A stretch of 64,000 nt of DNA from Escherichia coli (GTDB lineage: Bacteria > Pseudomonadota > Gammaproteobacteria > Enterobacterales > Enterobacteriaceae), in assembly GCA_031701365.1 (NCBI GenBank), contig GCA_031701365.1_4118.1; one strand, given 5' to 3'. Positions 4,589-62,542 of this stretch are shown piece by piece. The notes under the pieces are model-generated. The model saw only the letters and a list, made by a program, of their open reading frames with translations. It searched no databases and was not told the DNA's origin. Positions within the stretch are counted from its first letter, which is position 1; each line of letters begins with the position of its first letter. The position numbers and the translations under genes were made by a program.

Positions 4589-4794
4589 AAACTATAACAC
4601 GAACCCAATCATTCGGACTTATCTTGAAATACATGGACTTAATGGTGGATATCAGCAAAGACCTGCCTAAAACTGCAATTGAAGTTGCAAGAGCAGAGAT
4701 CCGCATGTTGGCTGTACTGAACACAAACCATCAGGAAGAGTATGTTGACGATTGGATTCGATTTTTAATAGAAGATATTAAGAGTAAACTATGA
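4585..4794 (+). CDS. family-A small protein, function unknown
   Basis: ATGA overlap; motif LAVLNTNHQEEYV; C-terminus KSKL. Confidence 0.8.
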   Translation: MKTITRTQSFGLILKYMDLMVDISKDLPKTAIEVARAEIRMLAVLNTNHQEEYVDDWIRFLIEDIKSKL

Positions 4795-5003
4795 TTATAT
4801 TAACACCTGAAGAATATAAGAAACGTTTTAAATCTGTCCAGGCTGAAATATTACTTATATACCTTTCAAATGCAGATCTTAACTTATCAAGGGTAATGGA
4901 GAAGGATTTACTTATGGGTGCATTTTTGGATACAGACTTTCAGGAGTATTATGTAGGAGAATACTTTATTGCACTTCAGAACCACATTAAGAGTAAACTA
5001 TGA
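4791..5003 (+). CDS. family-A small protein, function unknown
   Basis: ATGA overlap; motif GAFLDTDFQEYYV; C-terminus KSKL. Confidence 0.8.
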   Translation: MIILTPEEYKKRFKSVQAEILLIYLSNADLNLSRVMEKDLLMGAFLDTDFQEYYVGEYFIALQNHIKSKL

Positions 5004-5215
5004 TTATTCTAGAAAAATCATATCAATATACTGAACGCATCGCTGCCAGACAACTTGAAATCCTCATAATATACGAAGAGACTTCTGATTTAAACTTAGC
5101 CGAGGTATTGGAAAATGAAATACTTTTGGGTGCATTCTTGGGAACAGACTATCAGGAGTATTATGAGGAAAAGTATTTGTCATCTCTTGAGAAATACGTC
5201 AGGAGCAAACTATGA
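5000..5215 (+). CDS. family-A small protein, function unknown
   Basis: ATGA overlap; motif GAFLGTDYQEYYE. Confidence 0.8.
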   Translation: MIILEKSYQYTERIAARQLEILIIYEETSDLNLAEVLENEILLGAFLGTDYQEYYEEKYLSSLEKYVRSKL

Positions 5216-5439
5216 AACATTTAAGTAATATAGAGAAGAATAAAATTATCATTGCTGTAATAAACAAATATTTTACACTTCCACAAAAAGAATGTTTATC
5301 TATAAGGGAACACAGGATAAACACCACCGAGATTCGCATGTTGGCTGTACTGGGGACTAACTTCCAAGAAGGCTATGTTCATGAGCACATCGTTGCACTC
5401 ACTAATTACATAATGGACAAATGTAATGAACATCATTAA
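5212..5439 (+). CDS. family-A small protein, function unknown
   Basis: ATGA overlap; motif LAVLGTNFQEGYV. Confidence 0.8.
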   Translation: MKHLSNIEKNKIIIAVINKYFTLPQKECLSIREHRINTTEIRMLAVLGTNFQEGYVHEHIVALTNYIMDKCNEHH

Positions 5440-5650
5440 TAACTTTGAATACGAGGCCCGTGCTAAGAGTGCCAGAAAAAAAGAGAACACCATTTACTTC
5501 ACTATGATGTACTTACAATGGACTGAGATTGAAGAAAAGGTTGCTGAAGTATGGATGTTGGAATTCATGGGGACGCAGTATCAGAATAGGTTTGCGGGTG
5601 AGTATATCAATGTTCTTATGAAACAAATAGAAAGAAAGGAAAAGAACTAA
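5426..5650 (+). CDS. family-A small protein, function unknown
   Basis: Motif LEFMGTQYQNRFA. Confidence 0.8.
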   Translation: MNIINNFEYEARAKSARKKENTIYFTMMYLQWTEIEEKVAEVWMLEFMGTQYQNRFAGEYINVLMKQIERKEKN

Positions 5651-25658: not shown

Positions 25659-26195
25659 ATGTTAGATAAAAAAATGAACTCTGGAACCCAATATAATCAT
25701 CTTAAGTTGGATACATTCGAATCAGCTATCAGTACAGCACAAGATATAATTGATATTATCAAGTTCATTAAAGAAGATAAGTTCAAATGTTTGAAAATAC
25801 TAAATCGTTCAATGTACCGTGATAAAAATATTCATGTATCAGTACGTAGACCGAAAGATCAAGAAAGTGGGAGAGATTTCTATAACAACAGTGAGCAGTT
25901 CGAATGTGAATATGATCCAGAATTTAGAGGTGGTTTCATGTGTTACTGTATGAAGGATACCTCACACATTGAGATACGTTCATCGAAAGGTGGCATACGT
26001 ACATTAGAGTTTATTGATATAGTTTTAAATCAGGAATACTACTTTCAACTATCATTATTGTTTCCTGCATACGATTTAGGAGTTCTATTCATGTATAAGT
26101 ACTTTCATGAGCACTGGAATGAAGACTTCTATCTGGACTTAGAAGATTACCACTTAGTTTGGAAAGAAATGGTAAAACTTCGCAACCCATCTTGA
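25659..26195 (+). CDS. family-B protein (long form)
   Basis: Track ORF 25611 trimmed to ATG 25659 after GAGG SD; FESAISTAQDII; motif NQEYYFQLSLLFP; FYLDL. Confidence 0.75.
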   Translation: MLDKKMNSGTQYNHLKLDTFESAISTAQDIIDIIKFIKEDKFKCLKILNRSMYRDKNIHVSVRRPKDQESGRDFYNNSEQFECEYDPEFRGGFMCYCMKDTSHIEIRSSKGGIRTLEFIDIVLNQEYYFQLSLLFPAYDLGVLFMYKYFHEHWNEDFYLDLEDYHLVWKEMVKLRNPS

Positions 26196-26221
26196 CACCC
26201 TCCGATTCTTTGTGATATAAT
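26192..26221 (+). promoter_or_regulatory. TRTG-extended -10 promoter
   Basis: -35 TTGACA 26192-26197, 18-nt spacer ending TGTGA, -10 TATAAT 26216-26221. Confidence 0.65.
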
Positions 26222-40097: not shown

Positions 40098-40952
40098 ATG
40101 AAACTTTATCTAATCGTTGACTACAATAAGGATTATGCTGGTAACTTCACCGAAGATTCGGATGGATATTGCACATCGACTAATGTCAATGTACGTAGCA
40201 GTAGTGCTCATGAACATGAATCTTGTAAAAATCTAAAAGATTTTATCGCATACCGAGCATTTGAAAAGAACTTCTGCCGCAGTAGATATTCGAAGTTTGA
40301 GTACCCGTTAATTGATGTTCCTGATGATTTAATGTTCCAGTTAATGCTGACTGGAGTTCAAGATTATGATTACATAGCGTATAATCATATTACTAAGAAA
40401 ATTTATATTGGTACATCATCACATGACACTTCTATGTATGCATCATGCCCAGATGATCGAATGAATGATAGAAAATCATACTATAGTGGGTCAGTTGGTT
40501 TAAATGATTCATTAAATAAAAATTCATTCTTTGAGTATGTTTATGATTACCATCATGAGAAAAAAGAACGTGAAGATTACTGTATAGCAATTGATAGTAC
40601 TAATGGTTATGAAGACGTGAAAGAAGCACTTATGCCGTACATTATTGAAAAGTACTACAAAGATTTTCAGTACTGTAGTAATTTTCTAATCAGAAATTCT
40701 ATTATAATCGGTCGCCAATCTAGTGCATACTCTCAGTACTACAACGATTCACCAGTAGCATCGGCAAATGAAATGTGTGATATTTTACAAATTCCACGTG
40801 AAGATATGACATTTATTTTTACGTCTTTTATTGAAGATGATGAGTTGTATATTAAAAATAAACACCGTTTCATGCCAAGCAAGATTGAGGTTATTCGAAG
40901 TTTTAGTGTTGATATACTAACAAATTTCACAGAAAAAACCGAATATAACTGA
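40098..40952 (+). CDS. family-B-related protein (284 aa)
   Basis: Track TTG 40065 lies inside the terminator; trimmed to ATG 40098 after GGAG; motif PDDLMFQLMLTGV. Confidence 0.7.
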   Translation: MKLYLIVDYNKDYAGNFTEDSDGYCTSTNVNVRSSSAHEHESCKNLKDFIAYRAFEKNFCRSRYSKFEYPLIDVPDDLMFQLMLTGVQDYDYIAYNHITKKIYIGTSSHDTSMYASCPDDRMNDRKSYYSGSVGLNDSLNKNSFFEYVYDYHHEKKEREDYCIAIDSTNGYEDVKEALMPYIIEKYYKDFQYCSNFLIRNSIIIGRQSSAYSQYYNDSPVASANEMCDILQIPREDMTFIFTSFIEDDELYIKNKHRFMPSKIEVIRSFSVDILTNFTEKTEYN

Positions 40953-40969
40953 GACAAATGATAAGTTAA

Positions 40970-40978
40970 TGATATAAT
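40970..40978 (+). promoter_or_regulatory. extended -10 element TGATATAAT
   Basis: TGa+TATAAT at 40970-40978. The predicted start site (~40985) falls inside the 5' arm of the following terminator hairpin. It would drive the ORF-free region downstream. Confidence 0.45.
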
Positions 40979-40980
40979 AT

Positions 40981-41014
40981 AAGGTGACAACATAATATGT
41001 TAGTCACCTTTTTT
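40981..41014 (+). terminator. rho-independent terminator
   Basis: AAGGTGAC-AACAT-AAT-ATGTT-A-GTCACCTT, then TTTT. Confidence 0.7.
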
Positions 41015-41540
41015 AATCCTGAAAGGTTCCCATAAGGAAATGATTAAAAGCCTAATCCACTCGAAAATGTAGAGGGTAGATGAGTAGTCCTTTCAGTACG
41101 AACAGCAGATGAAACCCGTTAGATGATGGCATAGTTTGAACCACTCACGGCAATGCGGCTGTATAAAGAACTCCAATAGGATAAAGAGAGTTCCTCGATA
41201 GACATATAAGGATCGCACCTTACCAATTATCTAAGGGAGATTTCATAAGAAATATGCGGTCGGAATTATACAATATAGTTGCGTCCAAATTTTGTGAAAT
41301 CAAATACAAGTACTGGTCATATGGTATTTGTATTATGTGTCGGGATGTTTAAGACCGACGACCGTTGCTACAAGAACCGCGATAGAGAGAAACAGAGCAA
41401 CCCGCTTTCGTCTCGTAAGAGAATTCGTGATATGAACTATGTGAAGGCCACCAGCGTCAAATTTTTTTGTTCTTTCCCCTGCGGGGGGATGAAATATGCT
41501 CAAGCAAACCCCGTCAATATTAATTAAAAGAAAATAGTAC
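41015..41540 (+). ncRNA. candidate structured non-coding RNA region (family unknown)
   Basis: ~0.5 kb with no credible ORF and higher GC than its flanks. Many local helices: CTGAAAGG/CCTTTCAG, GAACTC/GAGTTC, GTCGG/CCGAC, GTTGCT/AGCAAC, TCTC-GTAA-GAGA (GNRA loop), CCCC-TGC-GGGG. Confidence 0.3.
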
Positions 41541-41632
41541 TTGTAGAATTAAACATGCGTAGCATGATAATTCTACTGATGTTGATGCAATCAACGTCAC
41601 GTATATTCATTGATGTTTCCATAGGAATAATG

Positions 41633-42175
41633 ATGGCATTTATTAGAAAAGAAAAAACTGTTACTTATAAAACTTTGAATTTTGATGATTGCATTAATCA
41701 ATCACAAGACGAAGATATCTTTACTGGATATGTGGTTATTAAAGAAAAAGGATGCATTTCTTATATAAAGGAATTACAAAATGGAATTGAAGTGACTTCA
41801 GTTAAATTACTTCCTACTCAAAAACCAACAATATCAAAAGCCCAGTATGGTAATTATTTTGAAGAAAGATATAGTAATAATTCAATAAGTGTTAAGGCTC
41901 ATATTATTAAAGGAGAACTAGAAGGAGAATATAGAAAATACAACCCACAAGGAAAATGTGTTTGGGTTAAATACTTCAATTCAGGATATGATGTAACATC
42001 TGAAATTATAGAATTCTTGGGTTTAAAATGTACCCCTGAGACTATTCATGATTACAAGTTCAATACTGAAGAAGAGTTTAATCTGATGATGCGTTACGGT
42101 TCACATTTTAAATTTTTATATGAATATAACATTGACAGTAGTACTTTTGATAAGATAGTACACAACTGTCTCTAA
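41633..42175 (+). CDS. hypothetical protein with MORN/YwqK-like repeat (about 180 aa)
   Basis: Track ORF 41555 trimmed to ATG 41633 (or 41630) after AGGAA; GELEGEYRKYNPQGKCVWVKYFNSG repeat pattern. Confidence 0.55.
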   Translation: MAFIRKEKTVTYKTLNFDDCINQSQDEDIFTGYVVIKEKGCISYIKELQNGIEVTSVKLLPTQKPTISKAQYGNYFEERYSNNSISVKAHIIKGELEGEYRKYNPQGKCVWVKYFNSGYDVTSEIIEFLGLKCTPETIHDYKFNTEEEFNLMMRYGSHFKFLYEYNIDSSTFDKIVHNCL

Positions 42176-42191
42176 CAAAAGGAATTATATA

Positions 42192-42713
42192 ATGTCGAAG
42201 AAGGATGCTTCGAAAAAACATTCAGTACATTTCAGTACTGGAAAGGACAACTGGACAACTCCCAAAGATTTCTTTGAAGATTTGGATGAGTTATGGGGAT
42301 TTACACTTGATGCTGCTTGTGTTGATGAGACTGCATTGTGTGATAACTATTTTACACCTGATGATAATTCTCTTGAACAAGACTGGGGAAAAAATATTGT
42401 TTGGTTAAATCCCCCATATAGTGATTTAAAAACTTGGTTAGCCAAGGCAGTAGATGCGTATAATAAAGGTGCTACAGTACTGATTCTAGTACCATCCAGG
42501 ACTGATACAATAGCATTTCAGGAATATGCAGCCAAAATATGTGATTGTATTTGTTTTATCAAAGGTAGATTACGTTTTGGTATTCCAGAAGAACCTGATA
42601 AGAAAACAGATTCAGCACCATTTCCTTCGTGTCTTATAGTCCTTGATAAGTACCTCACTACTGCTAAAATTAATTATCTTAAATCTCTCGGATTGGTGAT
42701 GAAGAATCTATGA
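42192..42713 (+). CDS. phage Dam-type DNA N6-adenine methyltransferase
   Basis: WTTP...LDAAC...WLNPPYS...LVPSRTDT...IKGRLRFG, the order of motifs typical of the small phage N6A-MTase family (Pfam Dam, PF05869). Confidence 0.85.
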   Translation: MSKKDASKKHSVHFSTGKDNWTTPKDFFEDLDELWGFTLDAACVDETALCDNYFTPDDNSLEQDWGKNIVWLNPPYSDLKTWLAKAVDAYNKGATVLILVPSRTDTIAFQEYAAKICDCICFIKGRLRFGIPEEPDKKTDSAPFPSCLIVLDKYLTTAKINYLKSLGLVMKNL

Positions 42714-43243
42714 AAGAAACATGTGTATTAACGTTTGGTCGTATTAATCCTGTACATCGTGGACATGGTTTAGTTTTTGAAAAGGCCAAAACATTACAAG
42801 AACAGTACAATGCTGATTTAAAAATATATCTAAGCACCAGTACTGACAATATAAAAAACCCACTCCCACCTGAACTAAAAATGTATTATACAGAGGGATT
42901 CTATCCTTCAGTGCAAGAGAACATCTACACAGAAGACAATCTATTTGATATAATGAGAGAACTGGATGGAAAGTACTTAGATGTTCTTTTCATTTGTGGT
43001 TCTGACCGTATTGATTCTTTTCAAAAAACTCTTGACATGTACAATGGTAAGTTGTATAATTTTTGTAGTATAAAAGCAATTCAGGCAGGTATTGACCGTA
43101 ATGTAAGTCAATATAGCTCAACACAAATGCGTAACTTCGCAAAAAATGAAGATTTTGATAGTTTTCGTGAGTTTTTACCTGGAAATGACGAGGACTTAAA
43201 AATACAATTATTTGAAGACGTTATAAAATACATGAGGAAATAA
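42710..43243 (+). CDS. nucleotidyltransferase, NMN adenylyltransferase-like
   Basis: ATGA overlap with the MTase; FGRINPVHRGH (HxGH motif) and SSTQMR (ISSTxxR-like motif). Confidence 0.6.
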   Translation: MKETCVLTFGRINPVHRGHGLVFEKAKTLQEQYNADLKIYLSTSTDNIKNPLPPELKMYYTEGFYPSVQENIYTEDNLFDIMRELDGKYLDVLFICGSDRIDSFQKTLDMYNGKLYNFCSIKAIQAGIDRNVSQYSSTQMRNFAKNEDFDSFREFLPGNDEDLKIQLFEDVIKYMRK

Positions 43244-46785: not shown

Positions 46786-47050
46786 AGTTCTTATTGCTGA
46801 AACAATGAAGATGATTTACTTTATTACTACGGCACAGGATTTGTCTTATCCAGTAAAATCGTTACTTAGGTCAATGTATCTTGATATTGTAAAAGAATAT
46901 TATAAATCTAAACACAGAAGCATTATTAGTGTTTATCGTGATTATGAAAGGATTCGTATTTTATTCTGGAACAAGAATCGAGTACGTTCTGAATGTGATC
47001 TAGTAGATTTTAAATTAGAGAATCTTTATTGCTATAAACAGGGACAATAG
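46766..47050 (+). CDS. family-C-like small protein
   Basis: Track GTG 46748 trimmed to ATG 46766, 7 nt after AAGGA. Confidence 0.65.
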   Translation: MTNTTNEVLIAETMKMIYFITTAQDLSYPVKSLLRSMYLDIVKEYYKSKHRSIISVYRDYERIRILFWNKNRVRSECDLVDFKLENLYCYKQGQ

Positions 47051-47059
47051 TCTAATTCA

Positions 47060-47068
47060 TGATATAAT
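47060..47068 (+). promoter_or_regulatory. extended -10 element TGATATAAT
   Basis: TGa+TATAAT at 47060-47068 in the 58-bp gap before the 47109 gene; weak -35. Confidence 0.45.
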
Positions 47069-56603: not shown

Positions 56604-57347
56604 ATGAAACATTTCTTAGAAGTAACCGTACCTGATGATAAAGATTTATACATTGTAGGTGATTTGCATGGTAATGGTAAACTATGGGATGCTACAGTGA
56701 AAGAATTTGGTATTACACACAATGATTATGTTTTCAGTGTAGGTGATATTATCGACCGTGGAGAACAAAATTCAAAGCTCCTTTTTGAATTTTTGTTCGG
56801 AGAAAATCGTTACATGATTGCGGGTAATCATGAGATGATGTGCGTTGATTCGGAAACACTTCGAGATTGGTATCATTGTTGGATAAGTAATGGTGGTGAT
56901 AAATTCCTTGATGAAGTTGGAGGAACAGGCATTCAATTCTTTCGTCAGTACTTAAAAGATCTCCCTATGATTATCCAAATCAATCACCGAGGCTTGAAGA
57001 TTGGGTTAGTTCATGCTGGAGTTCCGTTGGAATATACAACATGGGAACGATTTGTTAATGGGACAAAATCACTTAGTGCTGATATAATTGATAAGTGCTT
57101 GTGGGATAGGAAAACATTCGATTATTGTAGAACGAATAATACCTATTATGCACCTAAGTTAGATGGAGTGCATTGTGTCTTTAGTGGACATACAGCAGTT
57201 ACTGATCCACTCATTTATGGTAATCGCATTTGGATTGATAGTCAATTCTTGACGGGTGACTTAACTCTCGCTACTCCACAAAGTGGTGGGATGAGATACT
57301 TACGTAAAGAAAAAGATGAGTACTCATTCAATCGTTTCAAAAGGTAA
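56604..57347 (+). CDS. Ser/Thr protein phosphatase (lambda PPase / PrpA-like metallophosphatase)
   Basis: Track ORF 56589 trimmed to ATG 56604 after GGAG; GDLHGN, GDIIDRG, GNHE, and HAG/GHT motifs in canonical order. Confidence 0.85.
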   Translation: MKHFLEVTVPDDKDLYIVGDLHGNGKLWDATVKEFGITHNDYVFSVGDIIDRGEQNSKLLFEFLFGENRYMIAGNHEMMCVDSETLRDWYHCWISNGGDKFLDEVGGTGIQFFRQYLKDLPMIIQINHRGLKIGLVHAGVPLEYTTWERFVNGTKSLSADIIDKCLWDRKTFDYCRTNNTYYAPKLDGVHCVFSGHTAVTDPLIYGNRIWIDSQFLTGDLTLATPQSGGMRYLRKEKDEYSFNRFKR

Positions 57348-62513: not shown

Positions 62514-62542
62514 TTGGACATTTTAAATCTTAGTGATATAAT
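62514..62542 (+). promoter_or_regulatory. extended -10 promoter upstream of clpP
   Basis: -35 TTGGAC 62514-62519, 17-nt spacer ending AGTGA, -10 TATAAT 62537-62542. Confidence 0.6.

Follow-up and report, generated by a model that had tools for sequence, protein, structure and literature searches.

We identified the segment at approximately 40950-41595 of the window (the whole 64-kb stretch of DNA analysed here, that of a jumbo phage resembling Escherichia phage 121Q) as a stand-alone non-coding transcription unit, which represents "copy A" of a previously uncatalogued RNA family with members of roughly 0.5-0.6 kb. Considering the at least 79 distinct members of the family, in which helices and pseudoknots are held by compensatory substitutions, this is almost certainly a genuine family of structured-RNA genes; the initial annotation had proposed a candidate large structured RNA at 41015-41555. 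Structured RNA does lie within that span; the unit itself, however, passes both of its ends. Its parts, read from 5' to 3' on the plus strand, are a phage-class promoter, a 5' hairpin, the core, a U-run resembling a terminator, a pair of direct repeats and a downstream hairpin module.

The same annotation had described 41015-41555 as free of credible open reading frames and enriched in G+C, and both descriptions agree with our results. The frames of at least 40 amino acids present there are one of 82 residues on the plus strand and two of 41 and 56 residues on the minus strand, and in 200-nt windows the GC content is 0.38-0.44 for 41000-41500, compared with 0.27-0.335 on either flank. The longest open reading frame on either strand has a median length of 55 and a maximum of 98 amino acids (n=79 members), and no conserved reading frame was found across these 79 members. 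An intact gene in related genomes, which had been named as the finding that would speak for a pseudogene, was absent from all of them.

Transcription starts at the phage's own middle-type promoter class. The promoter (40950..40978) is formed by a -35-like TGAGACA (40950-56), which overlaps the upstream gene's stop codon, and, at a spacing of 13 nt, by the extended -10 element TGATATAAT (40970-78), with a 10/12 match to sigma-70 that includes the TG. The proposal that TGATATAAT acts as a promoter is strengthened by the enrichment of the composite GACA-N12-18-TGNTATAAT, which occurs five times in the 64-kb window, always on the plus strand, against 0.45 expected, a number reached by none of 100 shuffles; almost all family members have an equivalent promoter on their 5' side. 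The 'divergent RpoD-like' TGAAACG promoters of CBB and GAP32 constitute the equivalent class, and in CBB they are associated with DNA-synthesis genes (PMC5259590). The terminator-like stem-loop GGTGACAACATAATATGTTAGTCACC and the T-run that follows it (40983..41014), initially placed before the RNA, lie 3' of the -10 element and are therefore within the transcript; they probably also end transcription of the upstream gene. A hairpin between the -10 element and the core is present in the orthologous A-type copies of all genera, and the non-A paralogue types display the same 5' hairpin without the long U-run.

Comparative analysis overwhelmingly places the structure beyond chance. The 77 proposed base pairs are 96.5% canonical among the 79 distinct members, against 76.5% after column shuffling and 37-44% with slid partners, all of these values being calculated with kinship ignored. 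Double changes occur in 57 of the 77 pairs, and the double-change cells number 1123 observed versus 293. An independent tool, applied to 26 sequences, counted 96.2% versus 78.8% canonical pairs, and none of 500 shuffles matched the observed score; compensatory pairs beyond shuffle and slide controls are what is generally expected of a conserved structured RNA. G-U pairs are frequent and A-C pairs absent, implying that the plus strand is the folded one. Folding of the single sequence was not significant (MFE -128.1 kcal/mol, z = -1.24, 9 of 100 shuffles equally stable), so the finding is not validated by thermodynamics alone.

About 14 helices and 3-4 pseudoknots make up the fold of the RNA, many of its unpaired nucleotides are invariant, and the seven complementary pairs listed from the window before any comparison (7/7) map to helices that covary across the family. 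The 5' domain starts (41019..41099) with the 5' strand of PK1, followed by the hairpins H1 (41052-79), where the H1b part shows double changes in 5/5 pairs, and H2 (41084-99), which is 100% canonical. The listed pair CTGAAAGG/CCTTTCAG corresponds to PK1, a long-range pseudoknot of 7 bp with double changes in six, in which CTGAAAG (41019-25) pairs with the H2 loop CTTTCAG (41090-96). The next segment (41102..41222) harbors the stacked helices H3/H4 (41102-06/41158-62 and 41116-19/41147-50), whose tip is variable, H5 (GAACTC/GAGTTC, 41168-72/41189-93) and H6 (AAGG/CCTT, within TAAGG/CCTTA, 41207-11/41218-22), together with the invariant junctions ATAAAG and GATAGA. H3 and H5 have double changes in four to five pairs each, H6 also covaries, and PK4, an ATG/CAT pairing between 41153-55 and 41203-05, is 95.6% canonical with double changes in two of its three pairs. 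In the family alignment an invariant TAAGGGAG is followed by an optional peripheral module (41232..41294), composed of a hairpin (41261-83) with the conserved loop ATACAATAT, plus TCCAAATTTTG. By eye, other members appear to carry the peripheral module at a second insertion point, within H12.

Two hairpins occupy 41304..41359: the long H8 (41304-07/41330-33 and 41311-14/41323-26) and the covarying H9 (GTCGG/CCGAC, 41339-43/41355-59). The H8 loop TCATAT (41317-22) pairs with ATATGA (41430-35) to form PK3, which has 7 bp, is 98.9% canonical and is double-changed in six. The most conserved core (41360..41436) contains a GACC, PK2 (GTTGC/GCAAC, 41364-68/41397-41401), H10 (41378-82/41425-29), H11 (GAGAG/CTTTC, 41385-89/41405-09), the covarying H12 (TCTC-GTAA-GAGA, 41411-22) and the 3' strand of PK3. 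PK2, which is interleaved with H11 as an H-type pseudoknot, H10 and H11 are 99.5-100% canonical, with three to four covarying pairs apiece.

Beyond the core, direct repeat 1 (CCAGCGTCAA, 41451-60) is followed by a run of seven T (41462-68), the two together spanning 41451..41468. The segment 41474..41517 then holds H13 (CCCC-TGC-GGGG, with an invariant G-run and ATG, 41476-41491) and direct repeat 2 (CCCCGTCAA, 41509-17). The covariation of H13 is limited to C-G to U-G changes, which again indicates that the plus strand is folded. The two repeats, of consensus YCNCGUCAR and separated by a variable 47-87 nt, are identical to each other in 70 of 79 members, where 20 would be expected (MI 0.99 bit), and among the 79 members no column emerged as their complementary partner. 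A terminator-like hairpin or U-run follows the core in at least 45 of 77 members. Module 2 (41543..41595) consists of a 9-bp hairpin, GTAGAATTA/TAATTCTAC with the loop AACATGCGTAGCATGA (41543-76), and of the hairpin GTTGAT-GCA-ATCAAC (41581-95). Of the 79 members, 29 have a hairpin with a CGNAG(U/C)(G/A) loop at most 130 nt downstream, compared with 1.2% of random 150-nt windows of 121Q, and the loop motif is not widespread within the 64-kb window. Two other pairings were rejected: GAUAG/CUAUC, which the window copy contradicts, and a long-range pair from RNAalifold between GAUGA (after H1) and the CGUCAR repeat, which is invariant and hence offers no covariation to judge by; in the type 2 clade the apparent partner is a local hairpin covarying with its own 3' arm.

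The earlier remark that the RNA is not assignable to a known family agrees with a scan of the whole 64-kb window against Rfam 15, including GOLLD, ROOL, OLE, HEARO, RNase P, tmRNA, group I and II introns, 6S and riboswitches, which gave no matches at the gathering threshold. Under permissive conditions (E up to 10) the window copy and the Enterobacter hormaechei island copy, two of three divergent members scanned, produced only chance snoRNA, miRNA and sRNA matches with less than half the gathering scores, and a phage copy of type 2, a divergent second clade of the family, produced none. ARAGORN detected no tRNA or tmRNA genes in the window, and no description of the family was found by full-text search of the literature, including a catalogue of 10,006 csRNAs taken without its supplement (PMC10690425).

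Several specific candidates were discarded. A hammerhead ribozyme had been suggested by CAGAUGAG...CGAA...GUC, and the required core positions vary or are paired. The hammerhead core is C3 U4 G5 A6 N7 G8 A9 and G12 A13 A14, with stem III closed by A15.1-U16.1; in the family position 4 is occupied by A, some members have U in place of A6 (CAGTTGAG), and the 'GAA' after stem II varies (CGAA, CGAU, CGCA, CGUU, CGCC), its bases pairing in H3. Visual resemblances to CR-IV/V of RNase P and to R/S elements of group I had no model match in support. DRT2-like templates are flanked by repeats, their concatemer is an open reading frame and a reverse transcriptase is adjacent; for a rolling-circle template of this kind, the inter-repeat length modulo 3 is spread 27/27/21 and no reverse transcriptase is among the neighbours seen. 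A small peptide after GGGGGGAUG was also rejected, its frames being broken in copies B, C and islands.

All Rak2-like jumbo phages carry 4-5 ancient, same-strand, syntenic paralogues of this RNA. The 121Q genome contains four diverged paralogues, with about 70% identity (70-74%), at 90, 193, 247 and 327 kb, and GAP32 has copies at 35, 99, 178, 262 and 341 kb, the same pattern being observed in BF, fHe-Yen9-04 and a 366-kb metagenomic phage. In total, 71 phage records show 4-5 places apiece, and in Mimasvirus, Eneladusvirus, Salmonella 7t3, Xanthomonas XaC1 and RaK2 the 4-5 syntenic copies lie on one strand, 44-112 kb apart. The probability of a minimum gap this large by chance is about 0.006-0.02, although, because the genomes are syntenic, the spacing amounts to approximately one or two independent observations. 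The paralogue types are orthologous between genera and kept in place, neither homogenised nor lost, with a nucleotide identity across genera of 66-76% and no open reading frame kept.

Small integrative islands of Enterobacterales contain the RNA as well, as part of their core. Copies that are intact, with 70-77 of the 77 pairs, adjoin an integrase in islands of Serratia, Silvania, E. hormaechei, E. coli and an Enterobacteriaceae MAG, with the same fold and invariant nucleotides as the phage copies. The island backbones are unrelated and their integrases are of the serine or the tyrosine type. The RNA sits in the conserved island core, outside a variable slot in which the cargo is anti-phage (GmrSD; nSTAND3 with DUF4238; an SMC/AAA_15 protein with a Dam-type methyltransferase). 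The promoter is of the Asteriusvirus type in the E. coli island (TGGGATG...TGTGATATAAT) and of the TGAAAC type in the other islands. In the island L155 a terminator stops the transcript ahead of cI, and an antisense-to-cI induction model was rejected on this basis. Replication and packaging genes were absent from the visible island parts (8-20 kb views, with L155/L156 at full length); given that the views cover only 8-20 kb, replication genes possibly lie outside them. No candidate for a partner protein common to all islands was found.

With respect to function, our leading reading, which we put forward tentatively, is that each locus may encode a cis-acting origin-organising or primer RNA, a candidate replication-origin module that the islands have pirated. 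Host RNA polymerase, steered to the middle-class promoter, would synthesise the RNA, and the folded 5' body would govern the fate of the 3' end, by analogy with ColE1 RNA II and the R-loop origins oriF/oriG of T4. The U-run, the G-run hairpin, the iteron-like repeats, an AT-rich stretch and the hairpin module might then recruit or position the T4-type replisome, and islands with the same module and a local phage-type promoter would be replicated by an infecting jumbo phage. A cis or positional role is suggested by the retention of the paralogues in place, widely spaced and on a single strand even between opposite-strand neighbours. Further circumstantial evidence for the origin model comes from the promoter class, enriched here and linked to DNA-synthesis genes in CBB, from the G-run, the iteron-like repeats and carriage in the island core, and from the phage genes for RNase H, a UvsW-like helicase and a T4-type replisome. 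In its most specific form, a new class of large, pseudoknotted RNA would specify the 4-5 origins of Rak2-like phages, its fold and the iteron-like repeats jointly organising the formation of primers or R-loops and the loading of the replisome, and a widespread family of Enterobacterales defence islands of ~10 kb, devoid of replication and packaging genes, would pirate these origins along with the helper's promoter type as the first known jumbo-phage satellites, a proposal that we regard as doubtful.

The comparison with known origins is mixed. ColE1 RNA II is, like the family, a promoter-driven non-coding RNA of the class of about 550 nt; it is cis-acting, its 5' fold decides the persistent 3' hybrid at the origin, its G-run matters, and the element encodes no initiator. 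In contrast to the family, it has no pseudoknots, invariant junctions, identity-covarying repeats or multi-copy arrangement, and the two have no sequence or covariance-model relation; moreover, ColE1 RNA II is plasmid-borne, whereas none of the 72,556 plasmids in PLSDB carries the family. Middle-mode promoters are shared with T4 oriF/oriG, as is the number of sites, about five origins in T4 and 4-5 dispersed candidate-origin loci per genome here, and the phage itself, distantly related to T4, encodes the replication proteins named above. The T4 origins differ in that they contain no conserved structured RNA and have little in common beyond a promoter and an unwinding element. Origin iterons (lambda ori, T4 oriE) are, like the YCNCGUCAR pair, short direct repeats that co-evolve as a set; the family, however, has just two repeats (possibly three with the module-2 loop) at the variable spacing given above, and no initiator protein was identified. 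The YCNCGUCAR repeats may act on RNA rather than DNA.

Other observations weigh against the origin model. T4 R-loop origins need no conserved fold and ColE1 RNA II does without pseudoknots, and folds of such intricacy, in which junction nucleotides are invariant, are met more typically in ribozymes or RNP scaffolds. At the copies the GC skew of 121Q is featureless, though the skew there simply follows the direction of transcription. Selection against deletions between close direct repeats could also give wide spacing, and the C-G to U-G change in H13 suggests that the region past the U-run also acts as RNA. The absence of the family from the PLSDB plasmids and from the related islands L153/L154 points in the same direction.

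Nearly as likely as the origin model is a trans-acting RNA machine, a ribozyme or RNP scaffold supplied at high dose by several gene copies and working away from its locus, for example in RNA or DNA processing, packaging or host takeover, with the island copies competing for or redirecting a phage partner protein. The understood large RNAs with such architecture (rRNA, RNase P, group I/II introns and tmRNA) nearly all serve fundamental chemistry or scaffolding, and the size, the 3-4 pseudoknots and the invariant unpaired nucleotides of the family fit RNase P, introns, tmRNA, OLE, GOLLD and ROOL. With GOLLD, ROOL and OLE the family shares its size class, a complex fold and discovery by comparative genomics, and with GOLLD and ROOL also a phage or prophage link. 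It differs from the three in its architecture, no covariance model matches it even when E values up to 10 are admitted, and it alone has 4-5 diverged syntenic copies per genome in addition to copies in integrative islands. A trans-acting role would also be in agreement with the presence of an own promoter and a terminator-like 3' signal, and with the D-type and island copies being stand-alone genes, and proteins could bind the RNA at its repeated YCNCGUCAR and loop motifs. In RNA-seq of PA5oct, a jumbo phage that is a distant relative, lncRNAs 236-619 nt long account for 2-5% of phage reads. Its ncRNA001-004 are, like the family, long and non-coding, two of them being very abundant and one lying between opposite-strand genes as the D-type copies do; no structure or family is described for them, and homology was not detected to ncRNA001, ncRNA002 and ncRNA004, the three that were compared (nhmmer --max, best E 1.8). 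A trans-acting machine would not, however, lead one to expect that all diverged paralogues persist over the long term at their syntenic places, widely and evenly spaced and on a single strand, and it leaves unexplained the island core's own copy, the conservation beyond the terminator-like U-run and the lack of a candidate partner protein shared by all islands.

We consider it unlikely that the RNA is a cis element of transcription, namely a giant leader that would be either a riboswitch- or T-box-like sensor controlling the terminator-like hairpin after the core or a put-/EAR-like processive antiterminator carrying RNA polymerase through a block of downstream genes. In most copies an aptamer-like body is followed by a hairpin with a U-run and by a downstream gene, and in C-type copies repeat 1 forms one arm of a terminator-like hairpin. 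In the A-, B- and C-types no terminator separates module 2 from the adjoining ribosome-binding site, which belongs to a co-directional gene, and the spacing of roughly 70 kb could delimit transcription domains. The D-type copies of 121Q and GAP32 are, however, flanked by two opposite-strand genes while remaining on the common strand, the island copies are followed 3' by opposite-strand genes or nothing, L155 has its own terminator, and the downstream genes are unrelated between paralogue types; the family thus does not show the consistent placement before a related, co-directional gene set that defines a cis-regulatory 5' leader (riboswitch, T-box, attenuator). The HK022 put/EAR RNAs are, like the family, folded RNAs located just 3' of a promoter and before terminators; their target is the polymerase by which they were transcribed. 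With about 70-120 nt they are far smaller, and the D-type and island copies are not followed by co-directional genes on which antitermination could act.

A conflict RNA, by which the phage would carry a decoy or inhibitor of host defence and the islands a decoy or interference RNA expressed when the phage transcription apparatus arrives, is quite improbable. Both the variable anti-phage cargo and the phage-type promoters of the island copies would fit such a role, but the RNA is found in the conserved core beside the integrase and not in the cargo slot, its fold and invariant nucleotides are shared with no arms-race divergence seen, and syntenic retention of multiple, spaced copies is not predicted. 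Very unlikely is a selfish mobile element or its remnant, intron- or transposon-like, with the direct repeats as target duplications or cleavage/ligation sites. The dispersed copies, the unrelated island backbones with serine or tyrosine integrases, the repeats held identical and the HNH endonuclease genes within about 1 kb of 121Q copies B and C are compatible with it; on the other hand, synteny across genera means that recent mobility is not seen, every copy has its own promoter, genes are never interrupted, both repeats lie at the 3' end instead of flanking the element, and Rfam revealed no group I or group II signature. Protein coding, whether by a degraded gene or by a short one like the 82-aa frame of the window (41279..41527, plus strand), is extremely unlikely, given that this frame has a TTG start and no SD, that its equivalent is broken by stops or frameshifts in all other family members, that the helix substitutions are compensatory and not codon-like, and that the nucleotide identity across genera persists without any open reading frame.

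Large RNAs of comparable tertiary architecture are rare, and the unexplained classes OLE, GOLLD and ROOL each grew into a research programme. If the origin model is true, the family would bear on how 350-kb phage genomes replicate, on RNA-structure-dependent initiation and on minimal islands hitch-hiking on jumbo phages; a trans-acting RNA would be a strong new ribozyme or RNP candidate. Cultured systems exist in E. coli with 121Q, phAPEC6 or Sharanji, in Cronobacter with GAP32 and in Serratia with BF. Experimental handles include 4-5 diverged natural variants per genome, the divergent second clade, a repeat pair evolving in lockstep, and intact copies in islands of common clinical Enterobacter and E. 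coli that bear defence systems. Either way, roughly 3 kb per genome of un- or mis-annotated sequence (spurious small ORFs, wrong starts) is explained in at least 71 phage genomes.

The gene downstream of copy A (41630..42175, plus strand), the orthologue of 121Q gp416, is separate from the RNA. The initial annotation, whose upstream promoter stood, had placed the next gene at 41555; this ORF start and the annotated start at 41565 both fall inside the module-2 hairpin. Given that orthologous proteins align from 41630/41633 and that 41543-41595 is a conserved hairpin module, the start is most likely at 41630/41633, where the ATG is preceded by AGGAA at 41623-27. The orthologues in GAP32, CBB, BF, Kaldavass and 7t3 start with MKIVYKCK/MNEVTYKQK, aligned to ...KEKTVTYKT.

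At 99.8% identity, the window matches Escherichia phage 121Q (Asteriusvirus, 348.5 kb), with position 40900 corresponding to 121Q 192692, and the candidate structured RNA (copy A) occupies an unannotated gap there between gp415 and gp416. BLAST gave four to five matching places per genome in all the related genomes. The remaining 121Q sequence contains three extra copies with 70-74% identity, all on the plus strand and in unannotated gaps: copy B at 90.3 kb, directly after the sigma-factor gene; copy C at 247.5 kb; and copy D at 326.7 kb, between the minus-strand endonuclease VII and baseplate hub genes. In an alignment of these copies, invariant blocks alternate with segments that change in a compensatory manner. 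A separate gap of ~2 kb in 121Q (L004:35194-37161, i.e., 135,194-137,161), free of annotated genes and flanked by two runs of ~60-aa tandem ORFs, showed no match to the RNA by BLAST or nhmmer.

Searches with blastn and nhmmer, and pattern scans across IMG/VR, GTDB genomes and metagenomes, yielded 79 distinct full-length members. They come from Asteriusvirus, Mimasvirus (GAP32, CBB), Eneladusvirus (Serratia BF, Yersinia fHe-Yen9-04 and Erwinia phages), Salmonella 7t3 and Munch, Erwinia Kaldavass, Xanthomonas XaC1, RaK2 (diverged) and uncultured relatives. A second clade, type 2, similar only in its 3' half, adjoins Dda-like helicase, DHFR and MazG genes in another Rak2-like phage. The initial annotation could not assign the region to a known RNA family, in agreement with the absence of Rfam 15 matches at the gathering threshold over the whole window; in permissive mode the window copy and an island copy gave only chance-level matches to unrelated models and the type 2 copy none. 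ARAGORN found no tRNA or tmRNA in the window, and a hammerhead was rejected: the string CAGAUGAG...CGAA resembles one but does not keep the core that such a ribozyme needs. Our literature search found no description of the family; the closest item is a set of four unrelated lncRNAs detected by RNA-seq in jumbo phage PA5oct, and the three of them that were compared showed no similarity. The family is new, without counterpart in Rfam or the searched literature, and it is a multi-copy, pseudoknot-rich RNA common to Rak2-like jumbo phages and small Enterobacterales islands.

Folded as a single sequence, the flagged region (41015-41555) is unexceptional (z = -1.24; 9 of 100 shuffles fold equally well), and therefore the meaning of its hairpins had to be decided by comparison with relatives, where covariation analysis had been proposed. 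RNAalifold on 26 sequences gave 67 pairs, 42 with compensatory changes, and an all-against-all covariation scan over the HMM match columns of the 79 sequences recovered these helices and added long-range ones. PK1 joins the 5' leader to the loop of hairpin H2 through 7 bp, six with double changes, and in the window is the pair CTGAAAGG/CCTTTCAG; PK2 (GUUGC/GCAAC) interleaves with helix H11; PK3 joins the H8 loop to the strand after H10, again through 7 bp with six double changes; and PK4 is a 3-bp contact. All seven complementary pairs listed by the initial annotation are helices of the combined 77-pair model. Without correction for phylogeny, 96.5% of the cells of this model are canonical, against 76.5 ± 0.3% after column shuffling and 37-44% when the partner is slid by 1-3 columns; double-change cells, likewise uncorrected and compared with column shuffles only, number 1123 against 293 ± 17 and occur in 57 of the 77 pairs. 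A separate, equally uncorrected count on a 26-sequence MAFFT alignment gave 96.2% against 78.8%, with double changes in 48 of 70 pairs and none of 500 shuffles as high. Compensatory changes across the 79 members lie far above those of shuffles. Since G-U pairs are common and A-C pairs absent, the folded strand is the plus strand, as would be consistent with an RNA transcribed from the upstream promoter. An optional module of ~35 nt (columns ~295-325 and ~460-490 of the family alignment A2; window 41261-41294), a hairpin with loop (U)UACAAUAU followed by UCCAAAAUUUG, has two alternative insertion points among members and is doubled in tandem in L091 and L108; its behaviour is that of a peripheral tertiary-contact or protein-binding module that can move.

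The -10 element from which transcription had been proposed is an extended -10, TGATATAAT (40970-78), located 13 nt after TGAGACA. Five matches to the composite GACA-N12-18-TGNTATAAT lie in the window, all of them on the plus strand (expected 0.45; none of 100 shuffles reaches five), and an extended -10 promoter lies 60-75 nt upstream of the core in almost every member. Mimasvirus and Eneladusvirus have TGAAACG as the -35-like element, and Asteriusvirus has TG(A/G)GACA or TGGGATG; this class corresponds to the "divergent RpoD-like" promoter linked to DNA-synthesis genes in the CBB paper (PMC5259590). The four other plus-strand GACA-N12-18-TGATATAAT sites (26194-26221, 47043-47068, 57062-57088 and 62517-62542) probably mark where middle-type transcription begins in this genome segment.

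The promoter is followed by a 5' hairpin, which in A-type copies carries a U-run (window 40983-41014) and there probably also terminates the upstream gene. Repeat 1 (YCANCGUCAR, 41451-60) lies 3' of the core; at least 45 of 77 members continue with a terminator-like hairpin and U-run, in place of which the window has just a T7 run (41462-68). Past the U-run come an invariant CCCC/GGGGGG hairpin, repeat 2 (YCNCGUCAR, 41509-17), an AT-rich stretch and finally module 2. The latter is a hairpin whose loop is of the CGNAGUGA type; 29 of 79 members have it, against 1.2% of random 150-nt genome windows. The repeats, 47-87 nt apart, covary by identity and not by complementarity. All eight comparable positions are identical within the molecule in 70 of 79 members (shuffles: mean 20, maximum 33), and one U/C position agrees in 79 of 79, with a mutual information of 0.99 bit, where no other column exceeds 0.55. 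Both sites read CGCUUCAA in RaK2-type copies and ACGAAG in the type 2 clade; no column that pairs with them by complementarity was found. The pattern looks like that of two sites recognised by a single sequence-specific factor. The inter-repeat lengths are not multiples of three, and a rolling-circle template was rejected for this reason.

The limits first given to the segment (41015-41555) enclose a structured RNA, but the unit exceeds them and the downstream gene most probably starts at ~41630, not 41555. Module 2 (41543-95) reaches into gp416 as annotated: the annotated start (41565), like the start of the longest ORF (41555), is located in a conserved non-coding hairpin. According to orthologues, the real start would be ATG 41630/41633, behind AGGAA, and hence the deposited protein probably begins with 22-26 codons that are not translated. 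Further downstream, a 177-aa ORF (42710-43243; ...RINPVHRGH...) is labelled "ribonucleotide reductase A (NrdB)" in 121Q; GAP32, CBB, BF, RaK2 and Kaldavass have orthologues of it under the name cytidylyltransferase (CTP_transf_like), and the NrdB label in 121Q and 7t3 looks wrong.

The paralogue types are orthologous across genera: A precedes the gp416, Dam methylase and cytidylyltransferase genes, B follows the sigma factor, C lies between orthologues of gp515 and the Dps-like gp518, and D between endonuclease VII and baseplate hub. It follows that the copies are old and that each has been kept on its own, without homogenisation. They are located at 35/99/178/262/341 kb in GAP32 (359 kb), 30/93/175/259/335 kb in Serratia BF (357 kb), 25/93/174/260/335 kb in Yersinia fHe-Yen9-04 (354 kb), 41/108/188/269/333 kb in an uncultured phage (366 kb) and 90/193/247/327 kb in 121Q (349 kb). 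Neighbouring copies are always at least 44 kb apart; an equally large minimum gap among five random points on a circle has a probability of ~0.006-0.02, and because the genomes are syntenic the spacing amounts to one or two independent observations.

Outside phages, pattern scans matched four bacterial genomes and BLAST two E. coli chromosomes. Each island copy is intact (70-77 of 77 pairs), lies in a 1.3-2 kb non-coding gap at the inner edge of a small integrative island, and is usually directly downstream of the integrase. Tracing the cI-like repressor beside the RNA revealed a widespread Enterobacterales island family of ~10 kb (L155:3500-13400 and L156, both Enterobacter hormaechei; also L075, L074, L153 and L154), inserted between msrA and corC. 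Its genes run from variable anti-phage cargo (GmrSD, DUF4238 with nSTAND3, or an SMC/AAA_15 protein with a Dam-type methyltransferase) through resolvase, LprI, a 286-aa protein, Ner and cI to the RNA and integrase. The RNA is part of the conserved island core; the related L153 and L154 islands are without it. No replication or packaging genes were seen in the islands viewed. Island promoters are phage-type, TGAAAC in Serratia, Silvania and Enterobacter and the Asteriusvirus type in the E. coli island, the latter matching phages of the same host. In L155 a terminator closes the RNA unit before cI; a second promoter-like site, TGAAA-N18-TATACT (L155:12087-12116, minus strand), lies directly after the integrase gene, ~500 nt upstream of the RNA's own promoter. 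The msrA-corC islands are candidate jumbo-phage satellites or defence islands.

What these comparisons show is an RNA gene family that is non-coding, intricately folded, driven by promoters and conserved in position. The model covering most observations, which we advance tentatively, is that each RNA locus would act as an origin module, like ColE1 RNA II and the T4 oriF/oriG R-loop origins; the phage encodes a T4-type replisome, a UvsW-like helicase and RNase H. That the locus does something in place, and that islands gain by owning one, is suggested by the retention in place of diverged paralogues, by their wide spacing and single strand, by conservation past the terminator-like signal, iteron-like repeats included, and by the presence of the RNA, behind helper-type promoters, in the core of islands in which no rep genes were seen. 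The 121Q GC skew was uninformative and a plasmid search (PLSDB) negative as to origin evidence. The fold itself argues for a ribozyme- or RNP-type RNA, and one acting in trans is only slightly less probable than the origin module. A cis-acting transcription element is improbable, being weakened by the D-type and island contexts; a conflict or decoy RNA is slightly more doubtful still, and a selfish element quite unlikely. A coding function is barely conceivable: the region is ORF-free as initially described, with only a TTG-started 82-aa frame (41279..41527) on the plus strand that is broken in all other members, and the 79 members have no conserved ORF that would make the segment a pseudogene (longest ORF, median 55 aa). 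Its G+C enrichment was likewise borne out (0.38-0.44 at 41000-41500 against 0.27-0.335 on both flanks).

Several deposited genomes carry small minus-strand genes wholly within RNA copies, such as the "hypothetical protein" gp516 of 121Q (L005:32799-32954) and others at L027:1773-1868 and 2014-2106 and L028:1548-1915, which are almost certainly spurious calls. In a Serratia fonticola chromosome, the visible part of an 8-kb locus (L077:1-5500) holds nothing but a serine recombinase, two ParB/RepB-like proteins and the RNA locus; it adjoins a duplicated rof gene (4775-5038, 5227-5490), its left boundary lies beyond the locus, and it is possibly a minimal island. The island of E. coli LR-29-1 (L078:15958-26302), between ffs and ybaA, has a different backbone, with DUF4326, DUF488 and dual-OB proteins and a tyrosine integrase that is interrupted by IS3. 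Its full-length RNA copy is nearest (at least 78% identity) to the D-type of Eneladusvirus Serratia BF and Yersinia fHe-Yen9-04, and despite this its promoter is of the Asteriusvirus type.
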